A stretch of DNA of 64,000 nucleotides. It comes from an uncultured Gammaproteobacteria bacterium (GTDB lineage: Bacteria > Patescibacteriota > Microgenomatia > JAMCZE01). Under the pieces are notes generated by a model. It was not told where the DNA came from and did no database searches. It worked only from the letters and a program-made list of their open reading frames with translations. A program made the translations under genes and the position numbers. Shown piece by piece: positions 61 to 57,396 of the stretch. The stretch spans positions 442,259 through 506,258 of the forward strand of contig CAZNUP010000001.1 of NCBI GenBank assembly GCA_964576435.1, written 5' to 3'. Position 1 is the stretch's first letter, and each line of letters opens with the position of its first letter.

Positions 61-1560
61 ATGAAAAATTTATTAAAAAATCTTAACCTCACAAAAGGTG
101 ATTTTGTATTCTTTGCCCTAATCATTCTTCTCTTTTTTGGCACTAGATTAATTAACCTACTTATCATTCCAATCTTTACGGATGAAGCTATCTATTTAAG
201 ATGGAGCCAAATTATGGCCCACGACGCAAGTCTTAGGTACTTGCCTTTGTCAGATGGAAAGCCACCACTTTTTATGTGGCTAGTCTCCTTTGCTATAAGA
301 GGGGCTCCCTTTTTGGATTACCTCTTTGCAGGAAGACTTGTGGCAGTTTTTGCAGGGTTTTTTGGACTAATTGGGGTTTACTTTACAAGCCGTGTTCTCT
401 TTAAAGAAAAATTAGTTGCTAATTTCGCCGCCATTTTTTACTTAATTATTCCCTTTACCCTTTTTTACGACAGGATTGCCCTTGCCGACTCGCTATTAGC
501 AGCCTTTGGGATTTGGAGTATTGGCCTAGGAGTTCTTCTAGCAAAAACCTTGAGATTGGATGTTGCTCTAATTCTTGGATGGATAATTGGTCTTGGGCTT
601 CTAACAAAAACCCCAGCAATATTTTTCATCATGATCCAACCGTTGCTGTTTTTTACGGTTCGAAAATTCAAATTTGCTGACATTGTGAAATTCCTTCTGT
701 TAGTTGGCGTTGCTTTTGTTGAATCTCAAATAATCTTTTCGATTTTAAGGCTCTTCCCATTGTTTCATATGCTCGGTCAAAAAAACCACGAGTTTACGCT
801 GTCTCTGGCAGAATTCCTACAAAACCCATTTGCACTATTTTTCGGAAATATCAAAAGCTTGCTTTCATGGGAAGTTGGTTATTTAACAATCCCCGTTGTC
901 ATACTTATTCTTTTTGCTGTAGTAATGGCAATAAAAAAGCGCTTCCTCCCACCCTTAATCTTGACTCTTATTTTCCTAGGATTTGTAATTTCCATGGCAA
1001 GCTTCAATAAGGTAATTTTTGTCAGGTATTTATTAACCTTTACTCCCGCTCTATTTTTAGTAGCAGCATACGGTTTATTTGAGCTTCAAGCCTTAATTAA
1101 GAATAAATATTTTAAGATTTTGGCAATCGCCTTTTTCTTTGTTTGGCCCATTACGATAAGTATGGATTTATTAACAAATCCTATCCAAGCACAAATTCCT
1201 AAATCTGATTCCGACCAATATCTCCACTCTTGGCCAGCTGGTTTTGGTGTAGTAGAAGTAAGAGATTACTTAGCGAATGTTCCAGGCAAATCTATTGTTC
1301 TAACTGAAGGAACATTTGGACTAATGCCTTATGCCTTAGAGCTTTATCAAAGTGATTATCCAAATACGCAAATTAAACCCTATTGGCCATTGCCAAACAC
1401 ACCTCCTGAAGATATCTTAAAATCTTCAAAAGATACGCAAATATTTGTTCTTATGTATCAAAATCAAAACAAACCCGCAAACTGGAATATGACTGAAGTT
1501 CTACGCTTCCGTCAAGGAAATGGTAATGACTATCTCCGATTGTATAAATTAAACAGATGA
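61..1560 (+). CDS. GT-C fold integral-membrane glycosyltransferase, PMT_2/ArnT-like (GT39/GT83 superfamily)
   Basis: 499 aa with many TM segments. N-terminal loop motif TDEAIYLRW (DE motif) and SDGKPPLFMWLV (hPPL motif) are typical of polyprenyl-phosphate-sugar dependent GT-C transferases. Confidence 0.6.
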   Translation: MKNLLKNLNLTKGDFVFFALIILLFFGTRLINLLIIPIFTDEAIYLRWSQIMAHDASLRYLPLSDGKPPLFMWLVSFAIRGAPFLDYLFAGRLVAVFAGFFGLIGVYFTSRVLFKEKLVANFAAIFYLIIPFTLFYDRIALADSLLAAFGIWSIGLGVLLAKTLRLDVALILGWIIGLGLLTKTPAIFFIMIQPLLFFTVRKFKFADIVKFLLLVGVAFVESQIIFSILRLFPLFHMLGQKNHEFTLSLAEFLQNPFALFFGNIKSLLSWEVGYLTIPVVILILFAVVMAIKKRFLPPLILTLIFLGFVISMASFNKVIFVRYLLTFTPALFLVAAYGLFELQALIKNKYFKILAIAFFFVWPITISMDLLTNPIQAQIPKSDSDQYLHSWPAGFGVVEVRDYLANVPGKSIVLTEGTFGLMPYALELYQSDYPNTQIKPYWPLPNTPPEDILKSSKDTQIFVLMYQNQNKPANWNMTEVLRFRQGNGNDYLRLYKLNR

Positions 1561-3128
1561 AATCATTTGTCGCTATTTTTCTAATAGTTATTCTAGCCTT
1601 CGTTTTACGCTTCTATAATATTGCAACTATTCCGCCCTCCCAAGATTGGGACGAGGCAAGTTTAAGTTGGAACGCCTATTCAATTTTAAAAACCGGAACT
1701 GATGAATATGGTAATGCCCACCCCGTCTCAATTAGATCCTTTAATGATTTCAAGCCCCCTCTTTATGTCTACACTTTAGTGCCATTTCAAGCAATTTTTG
1801 GGTCATCTGACTGGGTCACGCGTGCTCCATCAGCATTGTTTGGTTCTCTAACTGTGCTAGTTATGTTTTTCTTAGGGTGGCTACTTGCTAAAAAGAAAGT
1901 TGGCCTTGCTGTTGCACTTTTATTTGCAGTTACTCCTTGGACAGTTCAATTTAGTAGAGTTGCATTCGAAGCAAATCTGGCTCTGTTTTGGTTTACTCTT
2001 GGTGTTCTGGGAGTTTGCCTTTTTATTAAAAAAGAAAAGGGCCTATATCTTATTCTTTCGACAGTCTGTTTGCTTCTTGCTATGTATGCCTACCATAGTA
2101 CAAGGATAGCAGTGCCAGTTTTTGTTCTTTTAGTGGCTCTTCTAAATGTAAAGCTTTTTTGGAGAAAAAAATTATTTGTCATTATTGCCGGTTTGATATT
2201 TGTGGTTGGCCTCCTTCCTCTTGCAAGAAATTATGTGCGAGTCGGGGGGACTCAAGCCAGGTTTGAGAGCGTCAGCATTTTTAATGCCAAACCTAAGCTA
2301 GAAACGGATACTAAGATTGAAAAAATTAATGCTTTACCATTTATTTACTATCCACAGATAATTACCAGAAACTGGTTATCACATCTAGATTTTAAATTCC
2401 TTTTCTTAACTGCAGACAACACAGATAGGCACCATGCTCCAGATTCTGGATTGTTGTTGTTTGGTGAAATTGCTGCACTTATTTCCGCATTTATACTTGT
2501 AGTAAGAAAAAGACCATCTTGGCTAGGGATGATTTTAGTTCTTATTTTTGTAGCACCTTTGGCATCTTCCATTTCAACCGGCTCTCCGCATGCGGTTAGG
2601 GGACTGTTATTAGTTGTGCCGCTGACTTTTCTATCAGGGTTTGGCATTGTAGGCTCTCTGGAATTTTTTAAATCGAAGTGGAAACTAGTTGTGGCCGGTA
2701 TTTGGTCAGTTGTTTTGTTCGCCAGTGTTTTCTATTTTACTCATCAATATTTCATTCACATGCCAGTTGAGTTTGCTAGGAATTGGCAGTATGGCTACAA
2801 GCAGTTAGTGGAAAAAGTTTTAGCAGTTGAAAATAACTATGATGCCGTTGTGGTAACCACTTACTACGATCAACCATATATCTATTTCCTAAACTATGGA
2901 AGAATTTCTCCAGTAATCAAGAATGATTCATTTTTCTTCCAGGGAATGGATAAATATGTCTTCCATGATCCGGCAGATGTGGAACTTTATGATAAGAAAT
3001 TGTGCTGCAAAATATTAATTGCAGCTGCTCCCCATGAAGAAGTTCCTGGTGCAAATATTATAGATAAGATATACTTCCCAAATGGAAGTGTTGCCTTCAA
3101 TATATGGTCAAAACAAGTAAGAAAGTAA
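1557..3128 (+). CDS. GT-C fold integral-membrane glycosyltransferase, PMT_2/ArnT-like
   Basis: 523 aa polytopic protein. WDEASLSWNAY (DE motif) and FKPPLYVY motif. ATGA overlap with the upstream gene, consistent with translational coupling. Confidence 0.6.
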   Translation: MKSFVAIFLIVILAFVLRFYNIATIPPSQDWDEASLSWNAYSILKTGTDEYGNAHPVSIRSFNDFKPPLYVYTLVPFQAIFGSSDWVTRAPSALFGSLTVLVMFFLGWLLAKKKVGLAVALLFAVTPWTVQFSRVAFEANLALFWFTLGVLGVCLFIKKEKGLYLILSTVCLLLAMYAYHSTRIAVPVFVLLVALLNVKLFWRKKLFVIIAGLIFVVGLLPLARNYVRVGGTQARFESVSIFNAKPKLETDTKIEKINALPFIYYPQIITRNWLSHLDFKFLFLTADNTDRHHAPDSGLLLFGEIAALISAFILVVRKRPSWLGMILVLIFVAPLASSISTGSPHAVRGLLLVVPLTFLSGFGIVGSLEFFKSKWKLVVAGIWSVVLFASVFYFTHQYFIHMPVEFARNWQYGYKQLVEKVLAVENNYDAVVVTTYYDQPYIYFLNYGRISPVIKNDSFFFQGMDKYVFHDPADVELYDKKLCCKILIAAAPHEEVPGANIIDKIYFPNGSVAFNIWSKQVRK

Positions 3129-3877
3129 GCATAGTAATTCCTGCCTACAATGAAGAAAAGAACTTTCGCGCGGGTCTTTTGAATCCAATGATTTCCTTTT
3201 TAGAAAAACAGAAATATACTTTTGAGGTAATTTTTGTCGATGATGGTTCAACAGATAAGACTAAAAGTCTTGTTCAGGATTTATCAAAGAAAATTTCTAA
3301 ACCTGGTAAAACGTATAGGGTGCTTTCGATTCCTCACGGCGGTAAAGCCGCAGCAGTAAAAGCAGGGATGCTTGATGGGGTTGGGGAAATAATTTTATTT
3401 ACTGACTTTGATCAATCAACTCCAATAAGTAACCTTGATAAATTTCTAAAAGCCCATGAAAAAGGTGCTGATGTTGTAATTGGAGTTCGTGGAGAAGGTG
3501 CCGAAACTAAAAAAGACACTATCTTTAGAAGATTTAGAAGCTGGGGGTTTGTCTTTTATGTTCAAATTGTAGCTCTTCCAGGAATTTCAGATACCCAGTG
3601 TGGTTTTAAATCTTTTAAACATGACGTTGCTAAAAAGATATTTTCTAATTTGAGAGTTACGTTTAAGAAGAAAGTATCTGGTGGCTATATGGGCGCCTTT
3701 GACGTCGAAGCACTTTTCATAGCAAAAAAACTTCATTGTACAATTGTCCAAATTCCGGTTAGCTGGGTAAAAGTCTATTCTGAAAAACTTAATATCTGGC
3801 GTGAACCCCTTCAGATGGCAATTGATACTTTAAATGTGAGAATTGCAGGCCTGTCCGGCAAATATGACAATATATGA
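3104..3877 (+). CDS. GT2 polyprenyl-phosphate sugar synthase (DPM1/GtrB-like)
   Basis: VSIVIPAYNEE...VDDGSTDKT N-terminal GT-A signature and a DxD-like FTDFD. The size of about 250 aa is typical of Dpm1/GtrB-type enzymes. Confidence 0.65.
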   Translation: MVKTSKKVSIVIPAYNEEKNFRAGLLNPMISFLEKQKYTFEVIFVDDGSTDKTKSLVQDLSKKISKPGKTYRVLSIPHGGKAAAVKAGMLDGVGEIILFTDFDQSTPISNLDKFLKAHEKGADVVIGVRGEGAETKKDTIFRRFRSWGFVFYVQIVALPGISDTQCGFKSFKHDVAKKIFSNLRVTFKKKVSGGYMGAFDVEALFIAKKLHCTIVQIPVSWVKVYSEKLNIWREPLQMAIDTLNVRIAGLSGKYDNI

Positions 3878-4854
3878 TTATCACCCAGACTCCTCTAAGA
3901 GTTAGCTTCCTAGGTGGCAATACAGACTTTTCCAAATACTATCTAAAACGAGGTGGCGCAGTTCTATCAACTGCAATTGATAAATATATCTACTGCATTA
4001 TTACCGAGAGATTTGATGAAAAAATTTACGTCAACTGGTCTAAAAAAGAAATTGTCGATACCCCAAATGAACTAGAGCACGAACTGGTTAGAGAGGCTCT
4101 TAAAAAAGTAGGCGTCACAAAAGGCGTAGAAATTAGTTTCTTGGCAGATATTCCCTCAGAAGGTTCGGGTCTTGGTTCCAGCAGTAGTGTTTTGGTTGGA
4201 GTTCTAAATGCTTTGTATCACTACATTGGTGAGACTCCAACAGAGGAGCGTCTTGCCAAAGAGGCTTGTGAAATTGAAATTGAAGTTTTGAAAAAACCAA
4301 TTGGCATTCAAGACCAATACATAGCAGCCTATGGTGGACTAAGATTCTTTGAATTCCAAAAAAGTGGTGCCATTAAATCAACTAGAGTTAATATCCCAAA
4401 AAACATCAAAGAAGACTTTGATAATAGTTTAATGATGTTTTACACAGGTAAAACTAGAAAATCGAGTACGATTCTCTCTTCAGTTAAAGAAAACATCAAG
4501 GATAAAGAAAAATTACTTGATAAAACTAAAGAACTAGCTGTAGCTGGTCATAAAGCCCTTCTTAAAGGAAAAGTAGAAACAGTCGGTAAACTATTAAACG
4601 ATTATTGGCGCTTAAAAAAGCAAATGTCCGGTGCTATTTCGAATCCCGAGTTAGACACTTTGTATGACAAGGCATTAAAGGCAGGAGCAATCGGTGGGAA
4701 GCTTTTAGGTGCGGGTGGGGGAGGTTTTATGCTTTTTATGGTTCCATCAGAAAAACGCCAAAGTGTTAGGAAAGCTCTTAAAAACTACAGAGAGATGCCA
4801 TTCCATTTTGAGAAAGATGGCAGTAAAGTAATTGTGAATATAAGTAGAAATTAA
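3874..4854 (+). CDS. GHMP-family sugar kinase, HddA-like (D-glycero-D-manno-heptose 7-phosphate kinase family, COG2605)
   Basis: PLRVSFLGGNTDF motif and the GHMP ATP-binding loop PSEGSGLGSSSS. It is adjacent to a GmhA-like SIS gene. Confidence 0.55.
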   Translation: MIITQTPLRVSFLGGNTDFSKYYLKRGGAVLSTAIDKYIYCIITERFDEKIYVNWSKKEIVDTPNELEHELVREALKKVGVTKGVEISFLADIPSEGSGLGSSSSVLVGVLNALYHYIGETPTEERLAKEACEIEIEVLKKPIGIQDQYIAAYGGLRFFEFQKSGAIKSTRVNIPKNIKEDFDNSLMMFYTGKTRKSSTILSSVKENIKDKEKLLDKTKELAVAGHKALLKGKVETVGKLLNDYWRLKKQMSGAISNPELDTLYDKALKAGAIGGKLLGAGGGGFMLFMVPSEKRQSVRKALKNYREMPFHFEKDGSKVIVNISRN

Positions 4855-4855
4855 T

Positions 4856-5983
4856 ATGGCTAAAGGCAAAGTCTTAATAATTGGTGGTGCAGGATTCATT
4901 GGTTCCCACACAGCTGACGAACTGAAAAATAGAGGATATGATATTAGAATTCTTGATAATCTTTCCCCAAAGACTCACTTCGGCGCTTGGCCAGAATATT
5001 TAGATTCTTCTTTTGAGAAGATGGAGGGCGATGCGAGAAGTAAGGAAGATTTAGAAAAATCTCTAACTGGTGTTGATTATGTTATTCATCTCGCCGCCCA
5101 AATGGATCTAATGCCTGACTTCAGTGTGTTTTTTGATACCAATGTTACAAGTACAGCTTTAATTTATGAACTTATTGTCAAAAATAAATTGCCGATTAAA
5201 AAAGTCGTCGTCGCTTCATCTCAATTTGTTTATGGTGAGGGTCAATGGAATTGTAAAAAAGATGGAGTAGTAACCCCAAATTTAAGAACCCCTGAGCAAC
5301 TAGAAAAAGGCCATTGGAATCCAGTTTGTCCAAAATGCGGTGGGGAAATAAACTATTTAGGAAATACCGAAGACCATCAAGATCCACCCAATCAATATGC
5401 TATTTCTAAGTATGCAGAAGAGCTAATTGCTTTAAAAATTGGCAGGCAGTATGGTGTGCCTTCGGTAGCAATGCGTTATTCAATTGTCCACGGGCCAAGG
5501 CAGTCATTAAAAAATGCCTATTCAGGAGCTTTAAGAATTTTTGCCATGAAACTTTTAAACGGAGAAACACCACCAATTTACGAGGATGGAGCCTCGTTAA
5601 GGGATTATGTCTCAGTTTATGATGTCGCTAGAGCCAATGCTGATGTTTTGGAAAGTGATAAAGCTAACTACGAAAACTTTAATGTTGGCGGAGAAAAAGC
5701 CTACACAGTAACTGAACTAGCAACAATGGTTAGAGACTTGCTAGGTTTGTCTATGGATTTAAAACCAAGTCATCTTTTTAGAGTTGGTGACATTAGAAAT
5801 GCAGTTTCAAAAACAGACAAACTTCGAAAAATTGGCTGGAAGCAAAAAGACACTGAAGAGAATATTGTTAAAAAATATTTGGAATGGCTTAAGATTGAAG
5901 TTAAAAAACAAGATTTCTACTCCTATATTAAAGAAGCTGAGCAAAACATGCAGAAAAATGGTGTCATTAAAAAAGGAGCATGA
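4856..5983 (+). CDS. NAD-dependent sugar epimerase/dehydratase (extended SDR) with a Cys-containing insertion
   Basis: N-terminal GGAGFIGSH Rossmann motif and catalytic YAISK (YxxxK). A 40-aa insertion carries C-x26-CPKC, a possible metal-ribbon. Confidence 0.65.
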   Translation: MAKGKVLIIGGAGFIGSHTADELKNRGYDIRILDNLSPKTHFGAWPEYLDSSFEKMEGDARSKEDLEKSLTGVDYVIHLAAQMDLMPDFSVFFDTNVTSTALIYELIVKNKLPIKKVVVASSQFVYGEGQWNCKKDGVVTPNLRTPEQLEKGHWNPVCPKCGGEINYLGNTEDHQDPPNQYAISKYAEELIALKIGRQYGVPSVAMRYSIVHGPRQSLKNAYSGALRIFAMKLLNGETPPIYEDGASLRDYVSVYDVARANADVLESDKANYENFNVGGEKAYTVTELATMVRDLLGLSMDLKPSHLFRVGDIRNAVSKTDKLRKIGWKQKDTEENIVKKYLEWLKIEVKKQDFYSYIKEAEQNMQKNGVIKKGA

Positions 5984-6585
5984 ACTCAAAAAAATTCTTC
6001 ACCGATTATTTTTCTACTCTAAAAACCGCACTTGATGAAATTGATGTTAAAAAGTTGGAGAAAAGCTGTGAACTCTTAAAAACTGCCTATAAGGGTGGTA
6101 AAACAATTTTTACTATTGGTAACGGGGGGTCCGCTTCAACGGCTAGTCACATGGCCTGTGATTTAGCGAAAACCGTAAGAGGTCATAAAGGCGATTCAAA
6201 GTGGAAAGGCTTTAAAGCAATTTGCCTTGCAGATAATATGGGTTTAATAACTGCTTGGGCTAATGACGCGGGATATGAAAAAGTGTTTTCCGGACAGCTA
6301 GAGAATTTAGGTTCAAAAGGCGACATTCTTATAGCAATTTCATCATCTGGGAATTCTGAGAATATCCTCTCATGTGTTAAGCTTGCTAAAGAGCTTGGTA
6401 TAAAGACAATAGGGATAAGCGGGTTCAAGGGAGGAAAGTTGAAAAATTTAGTGGACGTAGCTTTAGTTTCAAGTGAAGAAGCTTATGGTCCAGTCGAAGA
6501 TATTCAACTTGTCATAAATCACGCAATTACAAATTATTTTATAAATTATTTCAATGAAACTTTCAGTCACACTAGCAGTTCATAA
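5980..6585 (+). CDS. gmhA: SIS-domain sedoheptulose-7-phosphate isomerase-like (GmhA family)
   Basis: TIGNGGSASTASHMACDL matches the GmhA GNGGSAADAQHFAAEL signature. The SIS-typical size (201 aa) and the neighbouring HddA-like kinase support the call. Confidence 0.55.
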   Translation: MNSKKFFTDYFSTLKTALDEIDVKKLEKSCELLKTAYKGGKTIFTIGNGGSASTASHMACDLAKTVRGHKGDSKWKGFKAICLADNMGLITAWANDAGYEKVFSGQLENLGSKGDILIAISSSGNSENILSCVKLAKELGIKTIGISGFKGGKLKNLVDVALVSSEEAYGPVEDIQLVINHAITNYFINYFNETFSHTSSS

Positions 6586-17521: not shown

Positions 17522-17523
17522 AA

Positions 17524-47963: not shown

Positions 47964-47971
47964 TTGAACCT

Positions 47972-48000: not shown

Positions 48001-48012
48001 GAAAATTCCTTT

Positions 48013-48041
48013 TTGACTTACGGCAGAGCTTATAGTATAAT
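48013..48041 (+). promoter_or_regulatory. Consensus sigma70-type promoter TTGACT-17-TATAAT
   Basis: TTGACT at 48013-48018 and TATAAT at 48036-48041 with an exact 17-nt spacer. The ATG of the small ORF lies 6 nt downstream (leaderless). Confidence 0.6.
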
Positions 48042-48047
48042 AAGTAG

Positions 48048-48230: not shown

Positions 48231-48305
48231 GTTTTTTTCAGTTCGATCTGGTGCCTTCCTTGGATGGAAGACGTTCGAACCTTTTACGCTCAAATTTGAC
48301 AATAT

Positions 48306-48596
48306 TTATTCGGAGACTACCCTTCTACCATCGGGAAGATCAAATTCTGTTTTGTCACCGTAAAATACTAATTCTGAAACATTCCCCAGCAGTCCACCTT
48401 CATAGAGGGTTTTTCCTAAGAATGAAAGTTTTATTCTTGGTCCTCTGGGAAGTGTTTTATATTCTGTGACCTCGAAGAAGTTCTCATGGCAATGTTCCAT
48501 ATGGATTTTTATGCCAGGAAATGTGAAATCTCTTCCCGGAATTGCTGAGTGGTGTTCGACCGATCCATCTCTAGGATTTTCGATGCGGAATTTCAT
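48306..48596 (-). CDS. Hypothetical protein (96 aa)
   Basis: Only sizeable ORF in this interval. It lies upstream of, and co-oriented with, the Nudix gene. No motif recognised. Confidence 0.3.
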   Translation of the reverse strand: MKFRIENPRDGSVEHHSAIPGRDFTFPGIKIHMEHCHENFFEVTEYKTLPRGPRIKLSFLGKTLYEGGLLGNVSELVFYGDKTEFDLPDGRRVVSE

Positions 48597-48661
48597 AGGT
48601 CAGGGGAGTTTATGTTTAGAAAACTTCGTTATCAAGTGAGGACGCCCTCTGTTAATAGAGC

Positions 48662-49375: not shown

Positions 49376-49384
49376 TAGCCTGGA

Positions 49385-49413
49385 TTATATCTCAGGTTCG
49401 ATTCCTTTCATGA
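49385..49413 (-). promoter_or_regulatory. Candidate -10 (TATAAT on the minus strand) 9 nt upstream of the Nudix gene ATG; near-leaderless
   Basis: Reverse-complement TATAAT at 49385-49390. The -35 is weak. Confidence 0.3.
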
Positions 49414-49499
49414 GTAAGTTGGTGTCGAGGTGGATAAACCTTACCTTTTGAGGCTAAATATTTTGCAGCCCTGGATGGAAAACGTCCGAACTTTTACTC

Positions 49500-50489
49500 T
49501 TAAAAAGACCGCTGCTCAATAAATGGGTTTAAAACCGACTGCAGAAAAGTTAGCGTCTCCGGTTTAGAATTAATTCCCTTTTGTTTGAGTAAATGAGGGA
49601 GCGTAATATTTGCCATCGTTGTGTTCGTCCTCACTGTCAATTTTTTCTGAACACCTGTGTATAATGAGTCTTTCTGCATGTCCTCATTTGCTAATTGATT
49701 TAGCCTCACCTGCAGTTTCTCATATTGATTGTCATACCGTTCTCGTTCCGAATCAGATAATTGATCTCGAGAGGCCTGCCAAGTAAAATCCGGTCCGATG
49801 TAGTGTTCAAGGATTGCCTTTGCTGCTAGATATTGTTCGATTTTTTTCGCTTCAACTTCGCCAATCGAATAAGCGTTTGTGCCCAATTTAATGGCTACAC
49901 CAATGTCTTGTTCATACCACCTTAACAATTGCTGTTGCTCATTGGGTGAATGCAGGTTATTAATTAAGCAACCTTGTTCAAAATCAATGACAGATACGGT
50001 TATTGGCCTTAATTTATCTTGCACTCCATCAATTACAAAAGAACCAGCATTTACGTCTCCCAATAAAACTCCTTTTGAGTGAACTAAGGATAGTGAATCG
50101 TGGACTTGTGCAACTACCTCGTCAAATTTAGCTTTAGCTGTTTCTGTGGTCCAATTTATTCTTTCAATGGATTCCCCTGGAACCCTTGTCATTAATAAAT
50201 GTGCTTCGCTGTTATCTTTGTTATATTTTAGTCCAATTGGTTTAGGTGTTACACCTGAGCCATCCAACGCTTCCAAAAATCGAAATTCTTGCTCTAAACG
50301 TTGAATTACACTTCTGCTGCCGCCTGATTTTAATTTTGCCGATTTACTAAAAAGTTGAGGAAAAAAATCTCCCCCATCTGTAAAAAGCTGATTTTTCTTG
50401 CCTCTAATTTCCGCAGCCGGGCTCTTAAATTCTAAAGTATTGTAATGAGGATGGTCTTCATTGAGGATAATATCTCTAATTTCAGCCAT
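49500..50489 (-). CDS. Protein-kinase-like fold protein (Kdo/WaaP LPS-kinase-like or RIO-like)
   Basis: LHSKGVLLGDVNAGSFVIDG resembles the catalytic loop H-x-G-x-x-H/L-GD-x-N-x-x-N. Upstream conserved Lys region LLMTRVPGESI. Confidence 0.4.
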   Translation of the reverse strand: MAEIRDIILNEDHPHYNTLEFKSPAAEIRGKKNQLFTDGGDFFPQLFSKSAKLKSGGSRSVIQRLEQEFRFLEALDGSGVTPKPIGLKYNKDNSEAHLLMTRVPGESIERINWTTETAKAKFDEVVAQVHDSLSLVHSKGVLLGDVNAGSFVIDGVQDKLRPITVSVIDFEQGCLINNLHSPNEQQQLLRWYEQDIGVAIKLGTNAYSIGEVEAKKIEQYLAAKAILEHYIGPDFTWQASRDQLSDSERERYDNQYEKLQVRLNQLANEDMQKDSLYTGVQKKLTVRTNTTMANITLPHLLKQKGINSKPETLTFLQSVLNPFIEQRSF

Positions 50490-50542: not shown

Positions 50543-51595
50543 ATGAAAATATGTATTGATATTAGTCAGGTTGTTTTTAAAGGCTCGGGAGTAGAAAACT
50601 ACACCAGAAATTTAGTTAGGGAAGTTTTGCGCGAAAACAAGAAGACCAACTCTCATCAATACATTCTTTTTGGAACAAGTCTTCGCCAAAAAGTACTCCT
50701 AGACGATTTTGCTTTTGAACTACGTAAAGAGGGATTAATTTTTAAAACTAGTTTTTGGGCGCTACCCCCTTCTTTTACTTCAACTGTTTGGAATCAAGTT
50801 CATCACGTAAAGATTGAACGACTAACTGGGAAAATTGATGTGTTCCATTCGTCAGATTGGACCCAACCTCCAACTAGAGCCAAAAAGGTAACCACAATTC
50901 ATGATCTAGTGACCTATAAATTCCCCGAAGCTTCAAATAAAACTATTGTAGACAATATGCGCCATAAAAATGTTTGGGTTAAAAAAGAAGTGGATGCAAT
51001 AATTGCCGTCTCCAAAAATACAAAACAAGACATTATTGATATCCTGGAAATTCCACAAAATAAAATTCATGTCATCTATGAAGGCGTGGGGGAAGATTTT
51101 CTGAATTTTAAACCTGGAAAAGATAAGACTAGCAAAAAATATATCCTTGCTATGAGCGGTGTTGGAAATAGAAAAAACACTGACCGAGTAGAAGAAGCGT
51201 TTAATCTTTTAAAGCCAAAAGGAGTAGAACTTTCAATTGTTGGTAAAAATCTTGGTTTTGTAAAACAAAGCGATTTACCAAGCCTTTATGCCAATTCCCA
51301 GGTCTTTGTTTATCCAAGTCTTTATGAAGGATTTGGGCTTCCAGTTTTAGAAGCTATGTCAGTAGGTTGTCCAGTAATAACATCAAATAACAGCAGTCTC
51401 CCAGAAGTTGGCGGTGACGCTGCAATTTATGTTGATCCGAGATCTGTGGAGGACATAAAAGATAAAATTACTGAAGTTCTGTCTTTGAGTCCTAAATCAA
51501 GAAAGTCTTTGGTTGAAAAGGGATTCGCACAAAGTAAAAAATTCTCATGGAATAAAGCTGCTAAAGAAACTATAAAGCTTTATGAAAGTCTTTGA
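50543..51595 (+). CDS. GT4 family glycosyltransferase
   Basis: Start set at MKICIDIS. EGFGLPVLEAMSVGCPVITSNNSSLPEV motif. Confidence 0.75.
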   Translation: MKICIDISQVVFKGSGVENYTRNLVREVLRENKKTNSHQYILFGTSLRQKVLLDDFAFELRKEGLIFKTSFWALPPSFTSTVWNQVHHVKIERLTGKIDVFHSSDWTQPPTRAKKVTTIHDLVTYKFPEASNKTIVDNMRHKNVWVKKEVDAIIAVSKNTKQDIIDILEIPQNKIHVIYEGVGEDFLNFKPGKDKTSKKYILAMSGVGNRKNTDRVEEAFNLLKPKGVELSIVGKNLGFVKQSDLPSLYANSQVFVYPSLYEGFGLPVLEAMSVGCPVITSNNSSLPEVGGDAAIYVDPRSVEDIKDKITEVLSLSPKSRKSLVEKGFAQSKKFSWNKAAKETIKLYESL

Positions 51596-52652
51596 TTTGC
51601 TTGTTGCATTGCTTTTAACTACATTCCTTTTTCTTCACATAAACAATCAGAAGGTAAATATAACCCAACTTGAAAATCGCTATCAAAACTCCCAATACGT
51701 AAACCCAAGTGGCTATAAATATTTCATTGATGACCCAGAAGTCTACCAAGTTGCTGGCTGGCACTACATTCACGGAGAAAGTCCAGATAAGGTCAATTTT
51801 GAACACCAGCCATTAGCTAAATATCTAATTGGCTTGTCGCTAATGGTATTTCAGAATGCATCCTATTTACAGTTAATAATCGCTTTTTTGTGCCTCTTTT
51901 TAACAATTAAGCTCTCACGAATAGCTTTTGGACAATCTCTGTGGGCATTTATACCAGCTGTATTTCTAACAGCTGACCCATTGTTTCAAGAACAATCCCG
52001 TCTGGTTTATTTGGATATTTATCAACTCCTGGCAATACTTTTGCTCTTTTTCTTAGTCTTAAAGAAGCGTTTTGTGCTTTCAATGTTAGCTTTAGGATTA
52101 GTTCTGTTATCAAATTCCGTTTGGTCAGGAATGATTACTGGGTTTGTAGCACTTTTCTTCGTTTTTATAAAAGACCGAAAAAACCTTTGGAATTTTCTAA
52201 AGTTTGTCCCAATTACAATCTTGGTGTATTTAGCTGGATATCTAGTTTTCCTCTTAAAAAACTCCCCAATCGACTTTATTATGCTCCACATAAAACAAAT
52301 AAGGTTTTATTTGTCATATGTTCCCGAATATCCAAAAGGTGAAGTATTTAGGGTAATTTTCCAAGGGTCCTGGCGCAAATGGTTTGGAGATCATGGTTTC
52401 ATGCCAGCAGAGCCTTGGTCAATTTTGTGGCCAATTGGCTTAGTGCTTTCCTATGTTCCAATCATTTCTAAAAACAGATCTCCTCTGGTTGTGCTTTTCA
52501 CTTTATGGATTTCGGTCTGGCTCATTTTCCTAAGTACAAAACTAATTTTCCCCCGCTATTTGCTAGTAATCCTGCCGTTTATCTACATTTTGGCTATAAT
52601 GGGTATTCATGACTATTGGGATAAATGGCAACGAAGCAAACGTAAAAGTTAG
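51582..52652 (+). CDS. GT-C fold membrane glycosyltransferase, PMT_2-like
   Basis: FEHQPLAKYLIGLSLMVF (hPPL motif) and about 9 TM segments. Confidence 0.5.
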   Translation: MKVFDLLVALLLTTFLFLHINNQKVNITQLENRYQNSQYVNPSGYKYFIDDPEVYQVAGWHYIHGESPDKVNFEHQPLAKYLIGLSLMVFQNASYLQLIIAFLCLFLTIKLSRIAFGQSLWAFIPAVFLTADPLFQEQSRLVYLDIYQLLAILLLFFLVLKKRFVLSMLALGLVLLSNSVWSGMITGFVALFFVFIKDRKNLWNFLKFVPITILVYLAGYLVFLLKNSPIDFIMLHIKQIRFYLSYVPEYPKGEVFRVIFQGSWRKWFGDHGFMPAEPWSILWPIGLVLSYVPIISKNRSPLVVLFTLWISVWLIFLSTKLIFPRYLLVILPFIYILAIMGIHDYWDKWQRSKRKS

Positions 52653-53697: not shown

Positions 53698-54286
53698 AGA
53701 TAAGTACGGAAACAAGCTCACAACTAAAGAAGCCCTGCCGAAAATTAATAATAGGATAGGTAGCTATATGCTCGATCTTGAGCTCATGATTTTGACCTTT
53801 GTTGGCAATATCCCTTCCCATTCTCTAAGAAGACTGTTTTATAGATCTGCAGGCATGAAAATAGGCAAGGGAACAAATATTCATATGTGGGCAAGGTTTT
53901 ATGAGCCCAAAAATATTGAAATTGGTGAGGATTCTCTTATTGGAGATAATGCATTTTTGGACGGCAGAGATAAGCTAAAAATTGGTAATCATGTAGGGAT
54001 TGCTTCACAAGTTCTTATCTATAACTCAGAGCACAACGTTAATTCAGAAGAATTCGAAGGCATCTATGGTCCAGTAGAAATTGGTGACTACGTTTTTATT
54101 GGCCCCAGAGTGACTATATTACCAGGTGTAAAAATTGGTAAAGGTGCAGTTATAGCGGCAGGAGCTGTAGTTACAAAAGATGTTCCCGAATTTGCTATAG
54201 TTGGCGGCGTGCCAGCGACAAAGATTAGTGACCGCAAGAATAAAGATCCCAAATATGTTCTTGGAAGGGCTCGCTTGTTTCAATAA
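53690..54286 (+). CDS. Hexapeptide-repeat (LbH) sugar O-acetyltransferase (WbbJ/WcaF-like)
   Basis: Tandem hexapeptide repeats [36 protein letters not shown]. Confidence 0.75.
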
Positions 54287-57200
54287 TGAGAAAAGCACTT
54301 AATTGGTTAGATGACAATATTATTACCCTAATTGCCGGGTTCCTCTTAATTTTTATTCCTCTTTATCCAAAAATCCCAGCAGCTGATATTCTTCCAGGTT
54401 ACATTGTCAGGATTAGATTAGAAGACTTCTTTATCTTAGCCTCAATTCTTATTTTTGGAATCCAGTTTTTAAGAAAGAAAGTAAAAATCGGCTGGGATTT
54501 ACCCTCAATTGGCATTATTGTCTACATTGTAATAGGACTAATATCAGTCTTTTGGTCAATTTTTGTTGCCCAAACAGTCCCTATGGAGTTTGTCCATATT
54601 GGAAAAACTGCTCTTCATTGGCTAAGAAGAATTGAATACTTTTCACTCTTCTTTATTTTTTTTGGAACTGGCCGGGATGTCAAAAAGGTAAAGATCATTA
54701 TGACCATTTTCTTCCTAACAGTAGCCGCCGTGACTATTTACGGTTATGGTCAAAAATATCTTGCCTGGTGCGCTTTTTCCACAATGAATCGGGAATTTTC
54801 TAAAGGCGCGTGTCTTTACCTAACGGAGCACTCCCGTGTTCTTTCAACTTTTGGAGGACATTACGATCTGGCTGCCTACTTAGTTATTGCCCTCTCCCTG
54901 GCTTGGAGTTTTTTCTTTGGCCTAAAAAACAAGTTTGCCAAAATTGCCATGGGGGTAGTAATTTTGTGCGGCCTATGGCTTTTAATTCTAACTGCTTCCC
55001 GTATTTCCTTCGGTGCCTATTTAGTAGGTCTTGCTGTAGTTGTCTTTATCTGGTCATTCAAAAAAGGAGTTGGGTGGGGAATAAGTAGGGGATTTGTTGC
55101 TCTTTTCTTAAGTATTCTCTTGATGTTATCTTTTGGTGACTTGTCAGATAGATTCTTAACTCTTGTTCGCTTCGATGAACGTTTTGGTGGAATTCGCCAG
55201 ATCCTTTTAGCAAGTAGTATCAAACCCCCTGCTGGTGCGATTTTAGTTGGCGATGTGACTTCAAGGTCTGATCAGCCACCAACCCCAATAAAACCAGGAG
55301 ATGTCACAGGTGATGAAGCTCCTCTCTTTGTTAATGTCAAACAAGCAGATGGTTCCATAAAAAGAGTAGAAAAGCCACGAACCTACTCAAAATGTGCTTT
55401 AAGGTTTGACCTTTCCACTTGTATTAGACTTGAATCCACCTGGCCCAGAGCATTTGGAGCATTTGAAAAAAGTCCGCTCTTTGGAACTGGATATGCCACA
55501 CTAACAAAAGCCCAAATTGAAGACTTCACTGAAGCAGAGTCAACAGACAACGACTATTTGCGCTCTCTTGGTGAAACCGGTGCTCTTGGTTTCTTGGCCT
55601 TCTTTGGAGTAGTTGTTGGTATGGCAATAATTGCCTTTAGAAGCCTCTCAGGTATTAAAGACCCATTTGTATTCTCGCTAGTTGCTGGTTTTATAGCTTT
55701 TGTTGTTGGAATTCTTGCTAATGCCGCTTACATTGACGTGTTCGAATCGAGTAAGGTCGCATATGTTTTCTGGGGACTTTCCGGTTTAACGCTTGGCACC
55801 ATTTATGCCCTGAGATCAAAAATTGCCGAGGATAGAGAACCATTCAGACTGAATTTTGATTGGAAGAGATATCTAGCAGCGTTGAAGAAATTTTTTCTTT
55901 CCGATGTCCCTTGGGTTTTATTACTTGTTGTCTTAGTTATTGTCACTCATGCCTACAATCCAGCAACTAGTAAATTCACTTTCGATGGCCCAATTGCCGA
56001 CTGGCATTCTTGGCGCCAAGCAGACACCTCATCAGTATCAAGGAGATTTGATAGAGATGGAATAAATCTGTTATATCCAACCTTTGACGATGTCTCATCA
56101 ATTCCCTCAGGTTTACCAAACCCCAATGGTTTTAGATACGTCGAATTCCCAATCTACAACGCAGCAACTGTCATGGTCAAAAAGTTCATGCCAGAACTAA
56201 GTATTGAAGCAGCAGGTAGAACAACCTCAGCCTTAGCTACAGCCTTTTCCGCTCTTTTCCTATTCCTAATAGCCAGAAGAATTTTTGGAAGAAGAGCAGG
56301 CTATTTGGTAATGATTACCTATGCTCTTATTCCCTATAACCTGTTTTACGGAAGATCAATTCTCCCAGATCCTACCATGGTAACCTTCTCTCTTGGATCA
56401 ATTTACTTTGCATTAAGATATGCCACAAAATCAAAAATCTACAACCTAGTTTTGAGTTTAATTTTTGGAGCGATTGCCCTTTTAGTTAAGCCTTACGCCT
56501 TCTTTTTACTTGCTCCAATAGCTTATATTTTGATTGCCGCTTTTGGATTTTCAAAGAAATTCTTAATTGTCTCTGCTTGTTATGCTCTTGCAGTTATCCC
56601 CCTTCTTTGGTGGCGCCAGTTTATTACAGCTTATCCAGCAGGAATTCCAGCAAATGACTGGCTCTTTAATGGTGATGGAATTAGGTTTAAAGGAGCTTTT
56701 TGGCAATGGATTTTTGCCGATAGAATTGGAAGATTGATTTTAGGATTCTGGGGACTCATTCTTCTAGCGTTTGGAATAGTTAGAAAACCACAAGAAAAGT
56801 TTGGCTGGTTCCCCTTAATTTTCCTTTTAACATCTCTTTGCTATGTATTTGTCTTTGCAACCGGCAATGTCCGTCATGACTATTACCAAATTCTTTTAGT
56901 CCCATCTCTTGCTCTTCTAGTTGGACTTGGAGTTGATTCACTTTTGAAAGGTAATTTTGTCTCCAAAGGCTTGGCTGTCATAGCTTTTATCTTTATGGTT
57001 GCCTTTGGTTGGTACCAGGTAAGAGACTACTACAATGTTAATCATCCTGAAATTGTTAAAGCCGGACGCGCTTTCGATAAACTCGTTGATAATCCAAAAG
57101 TAACAGTTATTGCTCCATATATGGGAGATACTGCCTTCCTTTATCAAACAAACCACAGAGGCTGGCCCATTATGGAAGGCTCAATTGATGACATGATTGG

Positions 57201-57396
57201 AAAAGGTGCACAGTTCTATGTCTCAACAACTTATGACGATGTAACTAATGACATCTTGAAGTATTCAGCCACCCAAGCAGTTCAAGATGAAAGAAAAGCA
57301 TATAAAGTTGAACCATATCCCTTTACAACAATTGCAAAAACCAAAGACTATGTCATTGTTCAATTAGTTCCAACAGAAAAACTTCCAGAAAGGTAA
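54286..57396 (+). CDS. Fusion (1036 aa) of an N-terminal O-antigen ligase/Wzy_C-like domain (also the O-oligosaccharyltransferase family) and a C-terminal GT-C (PMT_2-like) membrane domain
   Basis: N-domain (about nt 54286..55725) has LTASRISFGAYLVG and STDNDYLRSLGETGALGFLAF, which match the Wzy_C 'aHNsyLqil.E.G..G' region. C-domain (about nt 55786..57396) has a second polytopic block with a WRQADTSSVSRRF loop. Confidence 0.55.
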   Translation: MRKALNWLDDNIITLIAGFLLIFIPLYPKIPAADILPGYIVRIRLEDFFILASILIFGIQFLRKKVKIGWDLPSIGIIVYIVIGLISVFWSIFVAQTVPMEFVHIGKTALHWLRRIEYFSLFFIFFGTGRDVKKVKIIMTIFFLTVAAVTIYGYGQKYLAWCAFSTMNREFSKGACLYLTEHSRVLSTFGGHYDLAAYLVIALSLAWSFFFGLKNKFAKIAMGVVILCGLWLLILTASRISFGAYLVGLAVVVFIWSFKKGVGWGISRGFVALFLSILLMLSFGDLSDRFLTLVRFDERFGGIRQILLASSIKPPAGAILVGDVTSRSDQPPTPIKPGDVTGDEAPLFVNVKQADGSIKRVEKPRTYSKCALRFDLSTCIRLESTWPRAFGAFEKSPLFGTGYATLTKAQIEDFTEAESTDNDYLRSLGETGALGFLAFFGVVVGMAIIAFRSLSGIKDPFVFSLVAGFIAFVVGILANAAYIDVFESSKVAYVFWGLSGLTLGTIYALRSKIAEDREPFRLNFDWKRYLAALKKFFLSDVPWVLLLVVLVIVTHAYNPATSKFTFDGPIADWHSWRQADTSSVSRRFDRDGINLLYPTFDDVSSIPSGLPNPNGFRYVEFPIYNAATVMVKKFMPELSIEAAGRTTSALATAFSALFLFLIARRIFGRRAGYLVMITYALIPYNLFYGRSILPDPTMVTFSLGSIYFALRYATKSKIYNLVLSLIFGAIALLVKPYAFFLLAPIAYILIAAFGFSKKFLIVSACYALAVIPLLWWRQFITAYPAGIPANDWLFNGDGIRFKGAFWQWIFADRIGRLILGFWGLILLAFGIVRKPQEKFGWFPLIFLLTSLCYVFVFATGNVRHDYYQILLVPSLALLVGLGVDSLLKGNFVSKGLAVIAFIFMVAFGWYQVRDYYNVNHPEIVKAGRAFDKLVDNPKVTVIAPYMGDTAFLYQTNHRGWPIMEGSIDDMIGKGAQFYVSTTYDDVTNDILKYSATQAVQDERKAYKVEPYPFTTIAKTKDYVIVQLVPTEKLPER

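Follow-up and report, generated by a model that had tools for sequence, protein, structure and literature searches.

A GT-C-rich cell-envelope glycan locus in a Microgenomates bacterium, with a proposed role in glycosylation outside the membrane

Gene content of the locus

The window analysed here (the whole stretch of 64 kb) belongs to an ultrasmall bacterium of the Microgenomates (CPR), and genes for surface-sugar assembly fill nearly all of it. Family searches place 33 of its 55 ORFs among the glycosyltransferases (GTs), 22 of them of types other than GT-C, and also return Wzm/Wzt, Wzx, Wzy_C, a phosphoglycosyl transferase and an MBOAT/AlgX pair. The window is the bulk of a cell-envelope glycan locus, at least 66 kb long, of a Microgenomates-class CPR bacterium. 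The types of enzyme are already known and the layout is common to relatives; it is the number of these enzymes that is unusual. Only two intergenic gaps on the ORF map exceed 60 bp, which leaves little space for a small unlisted gene. Genes for precursors, priming, modification and export, and one non-glycan block, are the following:

3874..6585, plus strand: HddA-like GHMP kinase, SDR epimerase/dehydratase and GmhA-like SIS isomerase (NCBIfam, Pfam)
16103..18651, plus strand: MBOAT and AlgX-like SGNH protein (PF03062 3e-34, PF16822 7e-30)
18689..20767, plus strand: Wzm/Wzt ABC exporter (PF01061, PF00005, PF14524 Wzt_C 1e-19)
36053..37327, plus strand: Wzx-family flippase (Polysacc_synt, PF01943 7e-25)
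43266..50489, minus strand: MutS_V-type giant ATPase, NUDIX protein and kinase-like protein, the non-glycan block (Pfam)
61513..62154, plus strand: initiating polyprenyl-phosphate phosphoglycosyl transferase, Bac_transf, WbaP C-domain type (PF02397 6e-59, TIGR03025 1e-73)

The first of these reads as a heptose-phosphate branch (NCBIfam HddA 3e-54 and gmhA 1e-35, below equivalog cutoffs). The MBOAT/AlgX pair is predicted to O-acetylate a polymer outside the membrane, and the Wzt carries a glycan-binding domain at its C-terminal end. The minus-strand block (GC 0.39) is missing between the orthologous genes of a relative; it interrupts the glycan locus and is not part of the system. No flippase of the GtrA/SMR or MATE type that could serve lipid-P-sugars occurs in the window; the Wzx-family protein GacK has been proposed as a flippase of a lipid-P-sugar (bioRxiv 10.1101/180810), and by analogy the Wzx at 36053 may act as one here.

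Identity, number and age of the GT-C genes

61..1560, plus strand: PMT_2-type GT-C, 499 aa, 10 predicted TM segments, motifs TDEAIY and GKPPLF (PF13231 35.4 bits)
1557..3128, plus strand: PMT_2-type GT-C, 523 aa, 11 predicted TM segments, DWDEAS and FKPPLY (PF13231 36.8 bits)
8359..9483, plus strand: GT-C candidate, 374 aa, NFDGVHY and FFPVF (PF13231 20.4 bits, E 6e-4, below gathering score)
9454..10743, minus strand: PMT_2-like GT-C, 429 aa, 8 predicted TM segments, GTDQGLH (PF13231 24.4 bits, E 4e-5)
10746..12302, plus strand: PMT_2-like GT-C, 518 aa (PF13231 21.2 bits, E 4e-4; iterated profiles)
28861..30372, plus strand: GT-C, 503 aa, 10 predicted TM segments, invariant GFYHDDW after TM1 (model with GT-C fold)
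34564..36081, plus strand: GT-C of the DUF2142 family, 505 aa, 12 predicted TM segments, TPDEQAH and HYPPLYY (homologues; iterated profiles)
39951..41033, plus strand: PMT_2-type GT-C, 360 aa (PF13231 43.5 bits)
41932..43242, plus strand: PMT_2-type GT-C, 436 aa, WLDESIQ and FHPPFY (PF13231 44.1 bits)
51582..52652, plus strand: minimal GT-C, 356 aa, FIDDPE and EHQPLAKY (homologues; model with GT-C fold)
54286..57396, plus strand: Wzy_C/PMT_2 fusion, 1036 aa, WRQADT and EFPIYN in the PMT_2 part (PF04932, PF13231)

A sequence-only reading had named about ten polytopic GT-C enzymes with a shared acidic and a PPL-like motif. All ten ORFs exist (6-19 TM segments by hydropathy prediction); the number in the window is eleven, because 28861..30372 had been missed. 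Every GT-C sequence shows an acidic motif after TM1 as well as a PPL-like motif, and each of the two takes the same columns of the iterated profiles where the sequences align across that region. PF13231 (PMT_2; gathering score 26.1 bits) matches eight of the ten: 61, 1557, 39951, 41932 and 54286 above that score, and 8188, 9454(-) and 10734 below it, yet as their sole family match. For ORFs 8188-9483 (scored in Pfam as 8188) and 10734-12302 the likelier in-frame ATGs lie at 8359 and 10746. The three sub-threshold proteins are assigned from these matches together with a locally iterated profile on a small database: 8359 is drawn in with seeds 39951, 41932 and 9454(-), found no match in a PDB sequence search, and is the candidate with the weakest evidence of the set, while 9454(-), also reached by the profiles, matches TIGR03663 at 2.7e-7. 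Neither 34564 nor 51582 has a direct PF13231 match, but many of the 142 homologues of the former carry PF09913 (DUF2142) and/or PF13231, as do, for PF13231, 9 of the 23 proteins returned for the latter. Models of 51582 and 28861 show the GT-C fold; the family of 28861 is without a Pfam model and bears a distant likeness to GtrII (PF14264). The iterated GT-C profiles recruited none of the window's membrane proteins of the Wzx, MBOAT and ABC-2 types.

These matches, homologues and models support the view that the membrane proteins are GT-C enzymes of the PMT_2/ArnT-like (GT-C_A) kind; of the families to which the earlier reading had pointed PF13231 was found, whereas PF02366, PF04188 and PF09594 matched no window ORF at E<=0.01. 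A further match of several window GT-Cs is TIGR03663 (the Agl23 model, "flippase activity-associated"; 55.9 bits for 1557..3128, under the model cutoff), so that some of them could have a role other than transferase.

The protein at 54286 joins an N-terminal half of the O-antigen ligase/polymerase type, GT-C_B (residues 225-440, PF04932 53.8 bits, which passes the Wzy_C gathering score), to a PMT_2 GT-C half (residues 642-776, PF13231 56.0 bits). A search with a profile built on the fusion matched the sequence of no solved structure. Its relatives occur in 246 species genomes, and the two parts, fused in 26 loci and neighbouring ORFs in 46, are a gene pair conserved across Microgenomates.

Between any two of the GT-C genes identity reaches no more than 28-34%, and that over part of their length, whereas each of the six for which a relative's contig covers the region has a far closer orthologue there (39-57%). 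This argues that the array is old and that its genes diverged anciently, and are not the recent duplicates that "paralogous", in the sense of a local expansion, would imply. The orthologue of 39951 in the relative is 45% identical, and in 20 related loci an orthologue of 41932 stands next to the anchor gene. The number of GT-C genes, which had been called exceptional, is so against bacteria in general; around that same anchor gene, however, related Microgenomates have 1-5 GT-C genes (median 2) per ~23 kb, and at least nine occur in the collinear locus of one relative. The genes of the collinear locus are 33-71% identical to those of the window, and collinearity at such identities suggests that the locus is maintained by selection. 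At least three further GT-C genes lie directly upstream of the window.

Donor synthases and the proposed pathway

3104..3877, plus strand: GT2, candidate polyprenyl-phosphate sugar synthase, Dpm1/ArnC-like, no TM helix (PDB, NCBIfam)
12302..12967, plus strand: PpgS/GacI/AglJ-like GT2, 221 aa, no TM helix (NCBIfam PpgS, AglJ; PDB DPMS, ArnC)
12969..13298, plus strand: DUF2304 small membrane protein, 3 TM, GacJ/Rv3632 type (PF10066 82.5 bits, cutoff 25.5)
31344-31865, minus strand: GNAT acetyltransferase, following the next GT2
31838-32566, minus strand: ArnC/GtrB/PgfS-like GT2, synthase candidate (PDB, NCBIfam)

Three Dpm1/GtrB-like GT2s and a DUF2304 partner had been proposed, and the best matches agree. 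They are DPMS (5MLZ, 2.5e-14), ArnC (4e-12) and GtrB (1e-8) in the PDB for 3104, with PgfS, EpsD and ArnC at ~1e-17 in NCBIfam; ArnC (3.7e-15), DPMS (6e-14) and GtrB (1e-8), with PgfS and ArnC in NCBIfam, for 31838(-); and PpgS over the full length (2.8e-41, 141 bits against an equivalog cutoff of 370) and AglJ (7e-35) for 12302, a candidate synthase of polyprenyl-phosphate (N-acetyl)hexosamine or hexose. All NCBIfam matches of these candidates lie below equivalog cutoffs, and 3104 and 31838(-), unlike GtrB, ArnC and DPMS, are without TM helices and without an adjoining small membrane partner. In the relative L006 the GT2 and acetyltransferase of 31344..32566 form a single fused ORF of 379 aa (68% identity). 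The possible fourth synthase, 6554, is ruled out by its likeness to GmaR/SunS-type GT2s; the six GT2s other than the three candidates best match polymer-building or other non-synthase enzymes (e.g. TuaG, EpsE, HpsE, SunS).

The 3' end of GT-C 1557..3128 overlaps the start of 3104, and GT-C 10746, GT2 12302, DUF2304 12969 and the next GT4 follow one another with overlaps or gaps of 1-4 nt (the stop codon of 10746 and the ATG of 12302 overlap as TGATG). By analogy, 10746/12302/12969 appears to be a complete module mirroring GacL/GacI/GacJ and Rv3779/PpgS/Rv3632; GacJ is a DUF2304 protein, and Rv3632 stimulates PpgS (bioRxiv 10.1101/180810).

From the GT-C enzymes and the three synthases with their DUF2304 partner, extracytoplasmic glycosylation from lipid-phosphate monosaccharides is naturally predicted, as it had been from the sequence alone. 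We think it fairly probable that the locus encodes a many-branched "three-component" glycosylation outside the membrane, with branches placed on Wzm/Wzt- and Wzx-exported polymers. Family and fold assignments, the adjacency and coupling of genes and their conservation in relatives are the observations from which we infer donors, acceptors, step order and flipping; for the cytoplasmic steps we go by family membership. The enzyme at 61513 would prime polyprenyl phosphate, on which the 22 soluble GT2, GT4, GT6, GT8 and GT11 enzymes would assemble at least one lipid-linked glycan, to be modified by methyl- and acetyltransferases and exported by Wzm/Wzt (18689-20767) and Wzx (36053). Meanwhile 3104, 12302 (assisted by 12969) and 31838(-) would charge polyprenyl monophosphate with single sugars, and the eleven GT-C_A enzymes of the window, with at least three upstream, would use these to place specific branches or extensions on the glycans after export. 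The Wzy_C half of 54286 would ligate or polymerise a lipid-PP-linked glycan, and MBOAT/AlgX would O-acetylate the product. Lipid-P-monosaccharides are the donors of GT-C_A families, and lipid-PP-oligosaccharides those of O-ligase-type GT-C_B enzymes (PMC10920833); polymers built with ABC transporters also undergo three-component modification (PMC11127046). The context of export, priming and acetylation genes, Wzy_C and the 22 other GTs points first to glycan acceptors.

The missing flippase for lipid-P-sugars, the lack of TM helices and of a small partner in 3104 and 31838(-), and the sub-threshold Pfam and NCBIfam matches count against this pathway. So does the ratio of synthases to GT-Cs (3 to at least 14, unlike the 1:1 of classical Gtr cassettes), which resembles that of mycobacteria, where GT-Cs polymerise and do not merely decorate, and where few donor synthases (PPM, DPA) supply many GT-Cs. 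Most of the GT-Cs could then be linkage-specific polymerases and branching enzymes that build an LM/LAM- or arabinogalactan-like polymer from few polyprenyl-P-sugars, so that a lipoglycan or wall polysaccharide would be made directly outside and no cytoplasmic backbone decorated. The ORF directly upstream of the window has a GT87 match and the annotation MptA_B_family, the best match of 12302 is the mycobacterial PpgS, and the high diversity of the GT-C genes suggests many different linkages. However, the 22 cytoplasmic GTs, together with the phosphoglycosyl transferase and the two export systems, suffice for intracellular backbones, no lipid-anchor (PI-mannoside-type) enzymes were seen, and the window yielded no donor pathway of the PRPP/DPA type; we consider such construction unlikely. 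A LAM-like lipoglycan, one of the models suggested earlier, is a possible acceptor.

Protein O-glycosylation, in which a substantial share of the GT-Cs would place single sugars on Ser/Thr-rich surface or membrane proteins, with the Wzy_C protein maybe of PglL type, strikes us as improbable. Systems of this sort are PMT/Ppm1 of actinobacteria and, among streptococci, GtrB-PgtC2 or Pgf. The Wzy_C domain of 54286 is of the type carried by PglL-type O-oligosaccharyltransferases, PgfS is among the top NCBIfam matches of 3104 and 31838(-), one ORF upstream of the window matches PF02366 (PMT), and in streptococci GtrB acts together with a GT-C to glycosylate membrane proteins in their Ser/Thr-rich regions (PMC12041528). 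Yet PF02366 matches no window ORF and no MIR-domain match was returned, so that protein O-mannosylation specifically, the other model of the earlier reading, is not indicated; the locus has no obvious gene for a Ser/Thr-rich acceptor, and the neighbouring genes are typical of polysaccharide assembly and export. Finally, that part of the set is inactive (degenerate copies, or accessory, flippase-associated subunits of the Agl23 kind), with a much lower catalytic count, is very improbable, as no copy has lost the PPL-like motif or the acidic residue of its first outer loop, all ORFs are intact, and the orthologues of the six covered GT-Cs argue for purifying selection.

Comparison with known systems

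The Wzy_C family (WaaL O-antigen ligase, Wzy-type polymerases and PglL oligosaccharyltransferases; GT-C_B) resembles the N-terminal half of 54286 by PF04932, but here this half is fused to a PMT_2 GT-C_A domain, which in relatives may be a neighbouring ORF instead, and a CPR cell lacks lipid A-core. The GtrA/GtrB/Gtr(type) cassettes of O-antigen seroconversion and ArnC/ArnT similarly combine a GtrB/ArnC-like GT2 (here 31838(-) and 3104) with a GT-C, and the family of 28861 is distantly related to their GtrII; in contrast, our locus has no GtrA-type flippase, its GT2s are without the C-terminal TM helices that GtrB and ArnC have, its stoichiometry is many-to-few, and its genes are chromosomal and conserved, not phage-borne. 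The mycobacterial GT-C genes (PimE, MptA/B/C, EmbA-C, AftA-D) show no sequence-level orthology with those of the window and are scattered over a 4.4-Mb genome, whereas here at least 14 are packed in ~66 kb, the longest contig of the genome being 0.71 Mb.

The galactosamine decoration of mycobacterial arabinogalactan by PpgS (Rv3631), Rv3632 and Rv3779 has a similar arrangement: DUF2304 follows 12302 as Rv3632 follows PpgS, and a GT-C adjoins 12302, although its PpgS match stays far under the cutoff and there is no arabinogalactan context here. The same module is found in GacI/GacJ/GacL (with GacK) of the Streptococcus pyogenes group A carbohydrate, where a GT2 helped by a DUF2304 protein makes the polyprenyl-P-sugar and a GT-C moves the sugar, outside the membrane, onto an ABC-exported polymer (bioRxiv 10.1101/180810). 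Both loci include a Wzx-family protein, but no streptococcal model comes as near to 12302 as PpgS/AglJ, the host is a CPR bacterium, and where Gac has one GT-C and one synthase, a single locus here has at least 11-14 GT-Cs and three synthases.

A Microgenomates envelope locus and its membrane glycosyltransferases

The 64-kb window has a GC content of about 36% and is nearly gap-free coding sequence, with 55 ORFs plus one running off the end and intergenic gaps above 60 bp at just two places on the ORF map (47964-48661 and 49376-49499). Three of its proteins recur, identical in sequence, on a contig of 709,729 bp. Homologues of its proteins carry the names Patescibacteria, Microgenomates or Curtissbacteria, and with a single genome scanned per species, relatives of the Wzy_C+PMT_2 protein at 54286 turned up in 246 genomes, the named ones being Gottesmanbacteria (47-49% identity), Curtissbacteria, Woesebacteria, Pacebacteria, Beckwithbacteria and Chisholmbacteria. 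This places the organism in the Microgenomates class of the CPR bacteria. The labels "uncultured Gammaproteobacteria/Pseudomonadales" that also occur among these relatives are interspersed with Gottesmanbacteria, Curtissbacteria and Woesebacteria matches; they look like placeholders, and we do not take them as real taxonomy.

Glycosyltransferases make up 33 of the 55 window ORFs, within 62 kb; for comparison, 29 were reported as the whole complement of one complete Microgenomates genome (PMC7143001). The sequence-only reading had counted ten GT-C enzymes here (ORFs 61, 1557, 8359, 9454 on the minus strand, 10746, 34564, 39951, 41932, 51582 and the C-terminal half of 54286). All ten hold, three of them as candidates, but one had been missed, and a short assembly contig overlapping the left edge of the window carries three more directly upstream:

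28861-30372, plus strand: eleventh GT-C of the window, 503 aa, 10 TM segments
Upstream, first: a cut PMT_2-like ORF
Upstream, second: a PMT+PMT_2 ORF
Upstream, third: a GT87/MptA_B-like ORF

Added to the 11 in the window, the three upstream bring the contiguous locus to at least 14 GT-C genes. Its length, upstream genes included, is 66.6 kb or more, and its share of the 709,729-bp contig no more than about 9.4%. At the other end, an ORF for a DUF4012 protein with an N-terminal TM segment (62211-64000, plus strand; PF13196, 6.5e-25) follows the phosphoglycosyl transferase gene and runs off the end, marking the continuation of the envelope locus beyond the window.

That these ORFs encode GT-C enzymes is borne out by several lines of evidence. 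Hydropathy predicts 6-12 TM segments for each, and 19 for the double-domain 54286. Leaving aside Wzy_C on the N-terminal half of 54286, PF13231 (PMT_2) is the only Pfam family matched by eight of the ten: 61, 1557, 39951, 41932 and the C-terminal half of 54286 score above its gathering threshold, and 8359 (longer ORF 8188), 9454 and 10746 (longer ORF 10734) score below it, with E-values of 4e-5 to 6e-4, so that these three are weakly assigned candidates. ORF 34564 has no direct Pfam match, and many of its 142 homologues carry PF09913 (DUF2142) and/or PF13231; 51582 qualifies through homologues with PF13231. An acidic motif (D-E, D-D, D-Q or D) lies shortly past TM1 in all 11 (TDE, WDE, LDE, PDE, IDD, TDQ, HHD, QAD and others among the ten), and each of the ten has a PPL-like motif downstream of it. 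Iterated profiles, run over 1,187 ORFs from the window and related loci (a small, self-inclusive search whose E-values are indicative only), join all ten candidates into one set, with the two motifs sharing profile columns wherever a sequence is aligned over the stretch that carries them; at no point did the profiles take in the window's Wzx, MBOAT and ABC-2 membrane proteins. Structural models of 51582 and 28861 have the GT-C fold, and among the ORFs that could be tested neither the fold nor the acidic loop failed. By polytopy, profile and acidic motif, and for 51582 and 28861 also by fold, the ten ORFs and 28861 class as GT-C_A membrane glycosyltransferases of the PMT_2/ArnT/DUF2142 clan. 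PDB sequence searches with 8359 and 10746 alone gave nothing useful. The likeness to PIG-V-type enzymes proposed earlier found no echo, with no window ORF matching PF04188 or PF09594 (GT87); the latter matched only an upstream ORF (L010 3188-4543, 1e-6).

The position of 34564, between a GT2 gene and the Wzx gene, made a Wzy polymerase a candidate identity for it; the DUF2142 and PMT_2 domains of its homologues led us to reject this.

The eleventh enzyme, 28861, belongs to a widespread GT-C family without a Pfam model. It has no Pfam or NCBIfam match itself, and its sole profile link to a GT-C family model is through 3 of 53 family members that match Pfam GtrII (PF14264; best 2e-10). Among representative clusters, a profile built from five homologues finds 951, of which 229 lie at E<=1e-30, and the motif GFYHDDW directly past TM1 is invariant or nearly so in the family. 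Searches of PDB sequences with family profiles gave nothing useful. Directly upstream lies a gene for a 315-aa soluble protein, likewise without Pfam or NCBIfam match (27914-28861, plus strand), which is conserved together with 28861 in a relative (57% identity) and may be its partner or an unrecognised transferase.

An old array, long rather than dense

The GT-C genes had been described as paralogous and their number as exceptional. Within the window, BLASTP fails to detect most GT-C pairs, and the detected ones do not exceed 28% identity (271 aa aligned) or 34% (99 aa aligned). The 82-kb contig of a relative is collinear with the window from about 17.5 to 60.5 kb, with one-to-one orthologues at 33-71% identity, the GT-Cs among them (28861, 34564, 39951, 41932, 51582 and 54286) at 39-57%. 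This low identity between paralogues, together with the closer orthologues in the relative, indicates that the GT-C set is old, common to lineages and variable at its edges. Recent tandem duplication can be dismissed, with paralogues at 34% or less over fragments versus orthologues elsewhere at 39-59%. The variable part is illustrated by the same relative, which has two non-orthologous PMT_2 genes and one 482-aa ORF with 10 TM segments and DE and GPF motifs. This ORF (L006 18174-19622, plus strand; WSPDEE and GPFFHW) has no Pfam match and no counterpart in the window, and probably represents another unannotated GT-C family.

As to density, we looked at 40 related species in which 20 kb or more surround the orthologue of 54286; they have 1-5 sequence-detectable GT-Cs per about 23 kb (median 2). 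At 1.7 per 10 kb, the window thus has a density that is usual in this clade, and it is unusual in how long the array runs and in how it compares with bacteria at large. The sequence-only reading is thus confirmed and extended in its observation, and right in kind in its interpretation, but it overstated the case both on "paralogous", since identities of 39% or more to orthologues and of at most 34% within the window favour an old array, and on "exceptional", which suits the length and not the density.

The collinearity is interrupted by one block:

43266-50489, minus strand: a 1565-aa giant MutS_V-type ATPase, a NUDIX protein, a 96-aa ORF and an APH/kinase-like protein

The syntenic relative lacks this block, whose GC content is slightly higher (0.39); the 1565-aa protein has two MutS_V-type ATPase stretches and a partial PADLOC mad8 match (9e-15). 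The block may have arrived by insertion, as a defence or mobile module; a tRNA gene that would mark it was not detected in the window.

Donor synthesis, export and the remaining genes

Nine GT2 genes lie in the window, and for three of them (3104, 12302 and 31838 on the minus strand) lipid-phosphate-sugar synthases are the closest characterised relatives. The protein of 12302 matches PpgS over its full length (2.8e-41) and AglJ in NCBIfam, and DPMS and ArnC in the PDB; that of 31838 matches ArnC (3.7e-15), DPMS and GtrB in the PDB, and PgfS and ArnC in NCBIfam; that of 3104 matches DPMS (2.5e-14), ArnC and GtrB in the PDB. The scores lie far below the NCBIfam equivalog cutoffs (PpgS 141 versus 370 bits, ArnC 61-70 versus 529, PgfS 64-73 versus 500), and the three are therefore assigned at family level only. 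The other GT2s best match polymer-building or otherwise non-synthase enzymes (TuaG, EpsE, HpsE, SunS and a TIGR04283-family glycosyltransferase). Of the Dpm1/GtrB-like enzymes proposed earlier, these three stand and a possible fourth, 6554, does not, its best matches being GmaR (1.6e-18), SunS and TIGR04283.

The DUF2304 partner also proposed is present at 12969-13298 (PF10066, 82.5 bits versus a cutoff of 25.5; 109 aa, 3 TM segments), one nucleotide after 12302. GacJ of S. pyogenes, a DUF2304 protein, binds and strongly activates the GlcNAc-P-undecaprenol synthase GacI, and its M. tuberculosis homologue Rv3632 stimulates PpgS (bioRxiv 10.1101/180810). The GT-C gene 10746, the GT2 gene 12302, the DUF2304 gene 12969 and the next GT4 gene are joined by overlaps or gaps of 1-4 nt, which makes of the first three a compact, self-contained module of GT-C, synthase and activator. 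For 3104 and 31838, hydropathy and the ORF map give no predicted TM segment and no adjoining small membrane gene. The 31838 gene and a GNAT gene are separate overlapping ORFs (31344-32566, minus strand), and the pair is a single 379-aa fusion in a relative (L006 12528-13667, minus strand); this fusion hints that the sugar is N-acetylated before it is loaded onto the lipid, the two steps being functionally coupled.

The scanned ORFs of the window, which leave only two gaps above 60 bp, include no flippase of the GtrA/SMR or MATE type. The Wzx-family protein 36053 could, by analogy, flip the lipid-phosphate sugar, and such a Wzx-like flippase role has been proposed for GacK (bioRxiv 10.1101/180810).

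Export and initiation are represented by Wzm/Wzt with a Wzt_C glycan-binding domain, the Wzx flippase and a WbaP-type phosphoglycosyl transferase. Sugar precursors would come from an HddA-like kinase, an SDR epimerase and a GmhA-like isomerase, which together suggest a heptose branch, and an MBOAT+AlgX pair is predicted to O-acetylate outside the membrane. There are nine GT4-type enzymes (one encoded as two half-size ORFs), one GT6, one GT8-hexapeptide fusion, one GT11, one GT-methyltransferase fusion and five further methyltransferases. The Wzt gene with its Wzt_C domain is followed by the GT-methyltransferase fusion (19517-22498, plus strand; fusion at 20771-22498), an order which recalls the chain-length control by terminal methylation of ABC-transporter-dependent O-antigens (WbdD/Wzt). 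The GT6 (25416-27128, plus strand; PF03414, 6e-45, domain at residues 2-209 of 570) and the GT11, fucosyltransferase-like (32604-33494, plus strand; PF01531, 6.5e-32), are both conserved in a relative; GT6 is uncommon in bacteria, and in E. coli O86 these two families together produce H and A/B blood-group-like epitopes. The split GT4 consists of overlapping half-size ORFs:

59478-59972, plus strand: Glyco_transf_4, N-terminal half
59956-60465, plus strand: Glycos_transf_1, C-terminal half

We rejected a frameshifted pseudogene because a relative shares this split (L008 19897-20424 and 20417-20938, 34% and 48% identity); this looks like a genuine two-polypeptide GT-B enzyme with a logic similar to that of Alg13/Alg14.

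How the glycan might be assembled

In the three-component pathway, a lipid-phosphate-sugar synthase makes a donor that is flipped and then used by a GT-C enzyme outside the membrane; it is known from O-antigens, including those built with ABC transporters, streptococcal rhamnopolysaccharides, teichoic acids and mycobacterial arabinogalactan (bioRxiv 10.1101/180810; PMC11127046). By analogy, the anatomy of the locus most likely fits a multiplied version of this pathway. The three synthases (3104, 12302 and 31838) would supply the 14 or more GT-Cs, whose donor use we infer from family properties (PMC10920833) and from the co-located synthases; these would act on glycans built by the cytoplasmic glycosyltransferases and exported via Wzm/Wzt and Wzx, with ligation or polymerisation by Wzy_C and O-acetylation by MBOAT/AlgX as the predicted further steps.

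A serious rival is that polymerisation itself takes place outside the membrane, as in mycobacteria; the small number of donors versus the many GT-Cs speaks for it, as does the upstream MptA_B/GT87-like gene. A further rival is protein O-glycosylation of the GtrB-PgtC2 and Pgf kind (PMC12041528). Its O-mannosylation form, which had been suggested earlier, finds no enzyme in the window, where no ORF matches PF02366 (PMT, GT39) or a MIR domain at E<=0.01; PF02366 matched only an upstream ORF (L010 1572-3191, 1e-10). These two readings and the multiplied three-component pathway are not mutually exclusive.

The locus also contains the Wzy_C+PMT_2 pair, which is conserved across Microgenomates. In 54286, Wzy_C (PF04932; residues 225-440, 53.8 bits versus a gathering score of 31.7) lies in a polytopic domain, and PMT_2 scores 56.0 bits. 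The two halves form one ORF in 26 of 82 loci (window included) and two neighbouring ORFs read in the same direction in 46 of the other 56, most exceptions being cut at contig ends; fusion in some loci and adjacency in others is Rosetta-stone evidence that the halves cooperate. A profile of the fusion protein retrieved nothing useful from PDB sequences. The Wzy_C half is of the O-ligase/polymerase GT-C_B type, whose donors are lipid-PP-oligosaccharides, and the PMT_2 half is of the GT-C_A type, whose donors are lipid-P-monosaccharides (PMC10920833). It is conceivable, if rather unlikely in our view, that Microgenomates evolved, independently of mycobacteria, an envelope assembly that is largely extra-membrane, in which the Wzy_C+PMT_2 core (fused in the Gottesmanbacteria-like branch) primes and then ligates: the GT-C_A half would set a lipid-P-derived sugar on the acceptor and the GT-C_B half would then move a lipid-PP-linked polymer onto that sugar, while a dozen variable GT-Cs diversify a host-attachment glycan. 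If so, these variable enzymes, including the GFYHDDW family without a Pfam model, would diversify the surface glycan for epibiont attachment.

The CPR, or Patescibacteria, are a large share of bacterial diversity, with tiny genomes, and many appear to be attached to hosts. We found nothing on CPR surface chemistry in the literature searched, nor any description of such GT-C loci in that on CPR, Patescibacteria, Microgenomates and Gottesmanbacteria. Strong genome reduction, combined with a locus taking up to about 9% of the longest contig (0.71 Mb), argues for heavy investment in a complex branched envelope glycan, with at least 14 GT-C genes, in the window and just upstream, predicted to act outside the membrane. 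The GT-C/GT2/DUF2304 module, the Wzy_C+PMT_2 pair and the GT-C family without a Pfam model offer entry points to the cell-surface biology of CPR. The locus reveals no new biochemical principle, and all its enzyme families are known; what sets it apart is its scale, the conserved Wzy_C+PMT_2 pairing and the widespread GT-C family without a Pfam model.
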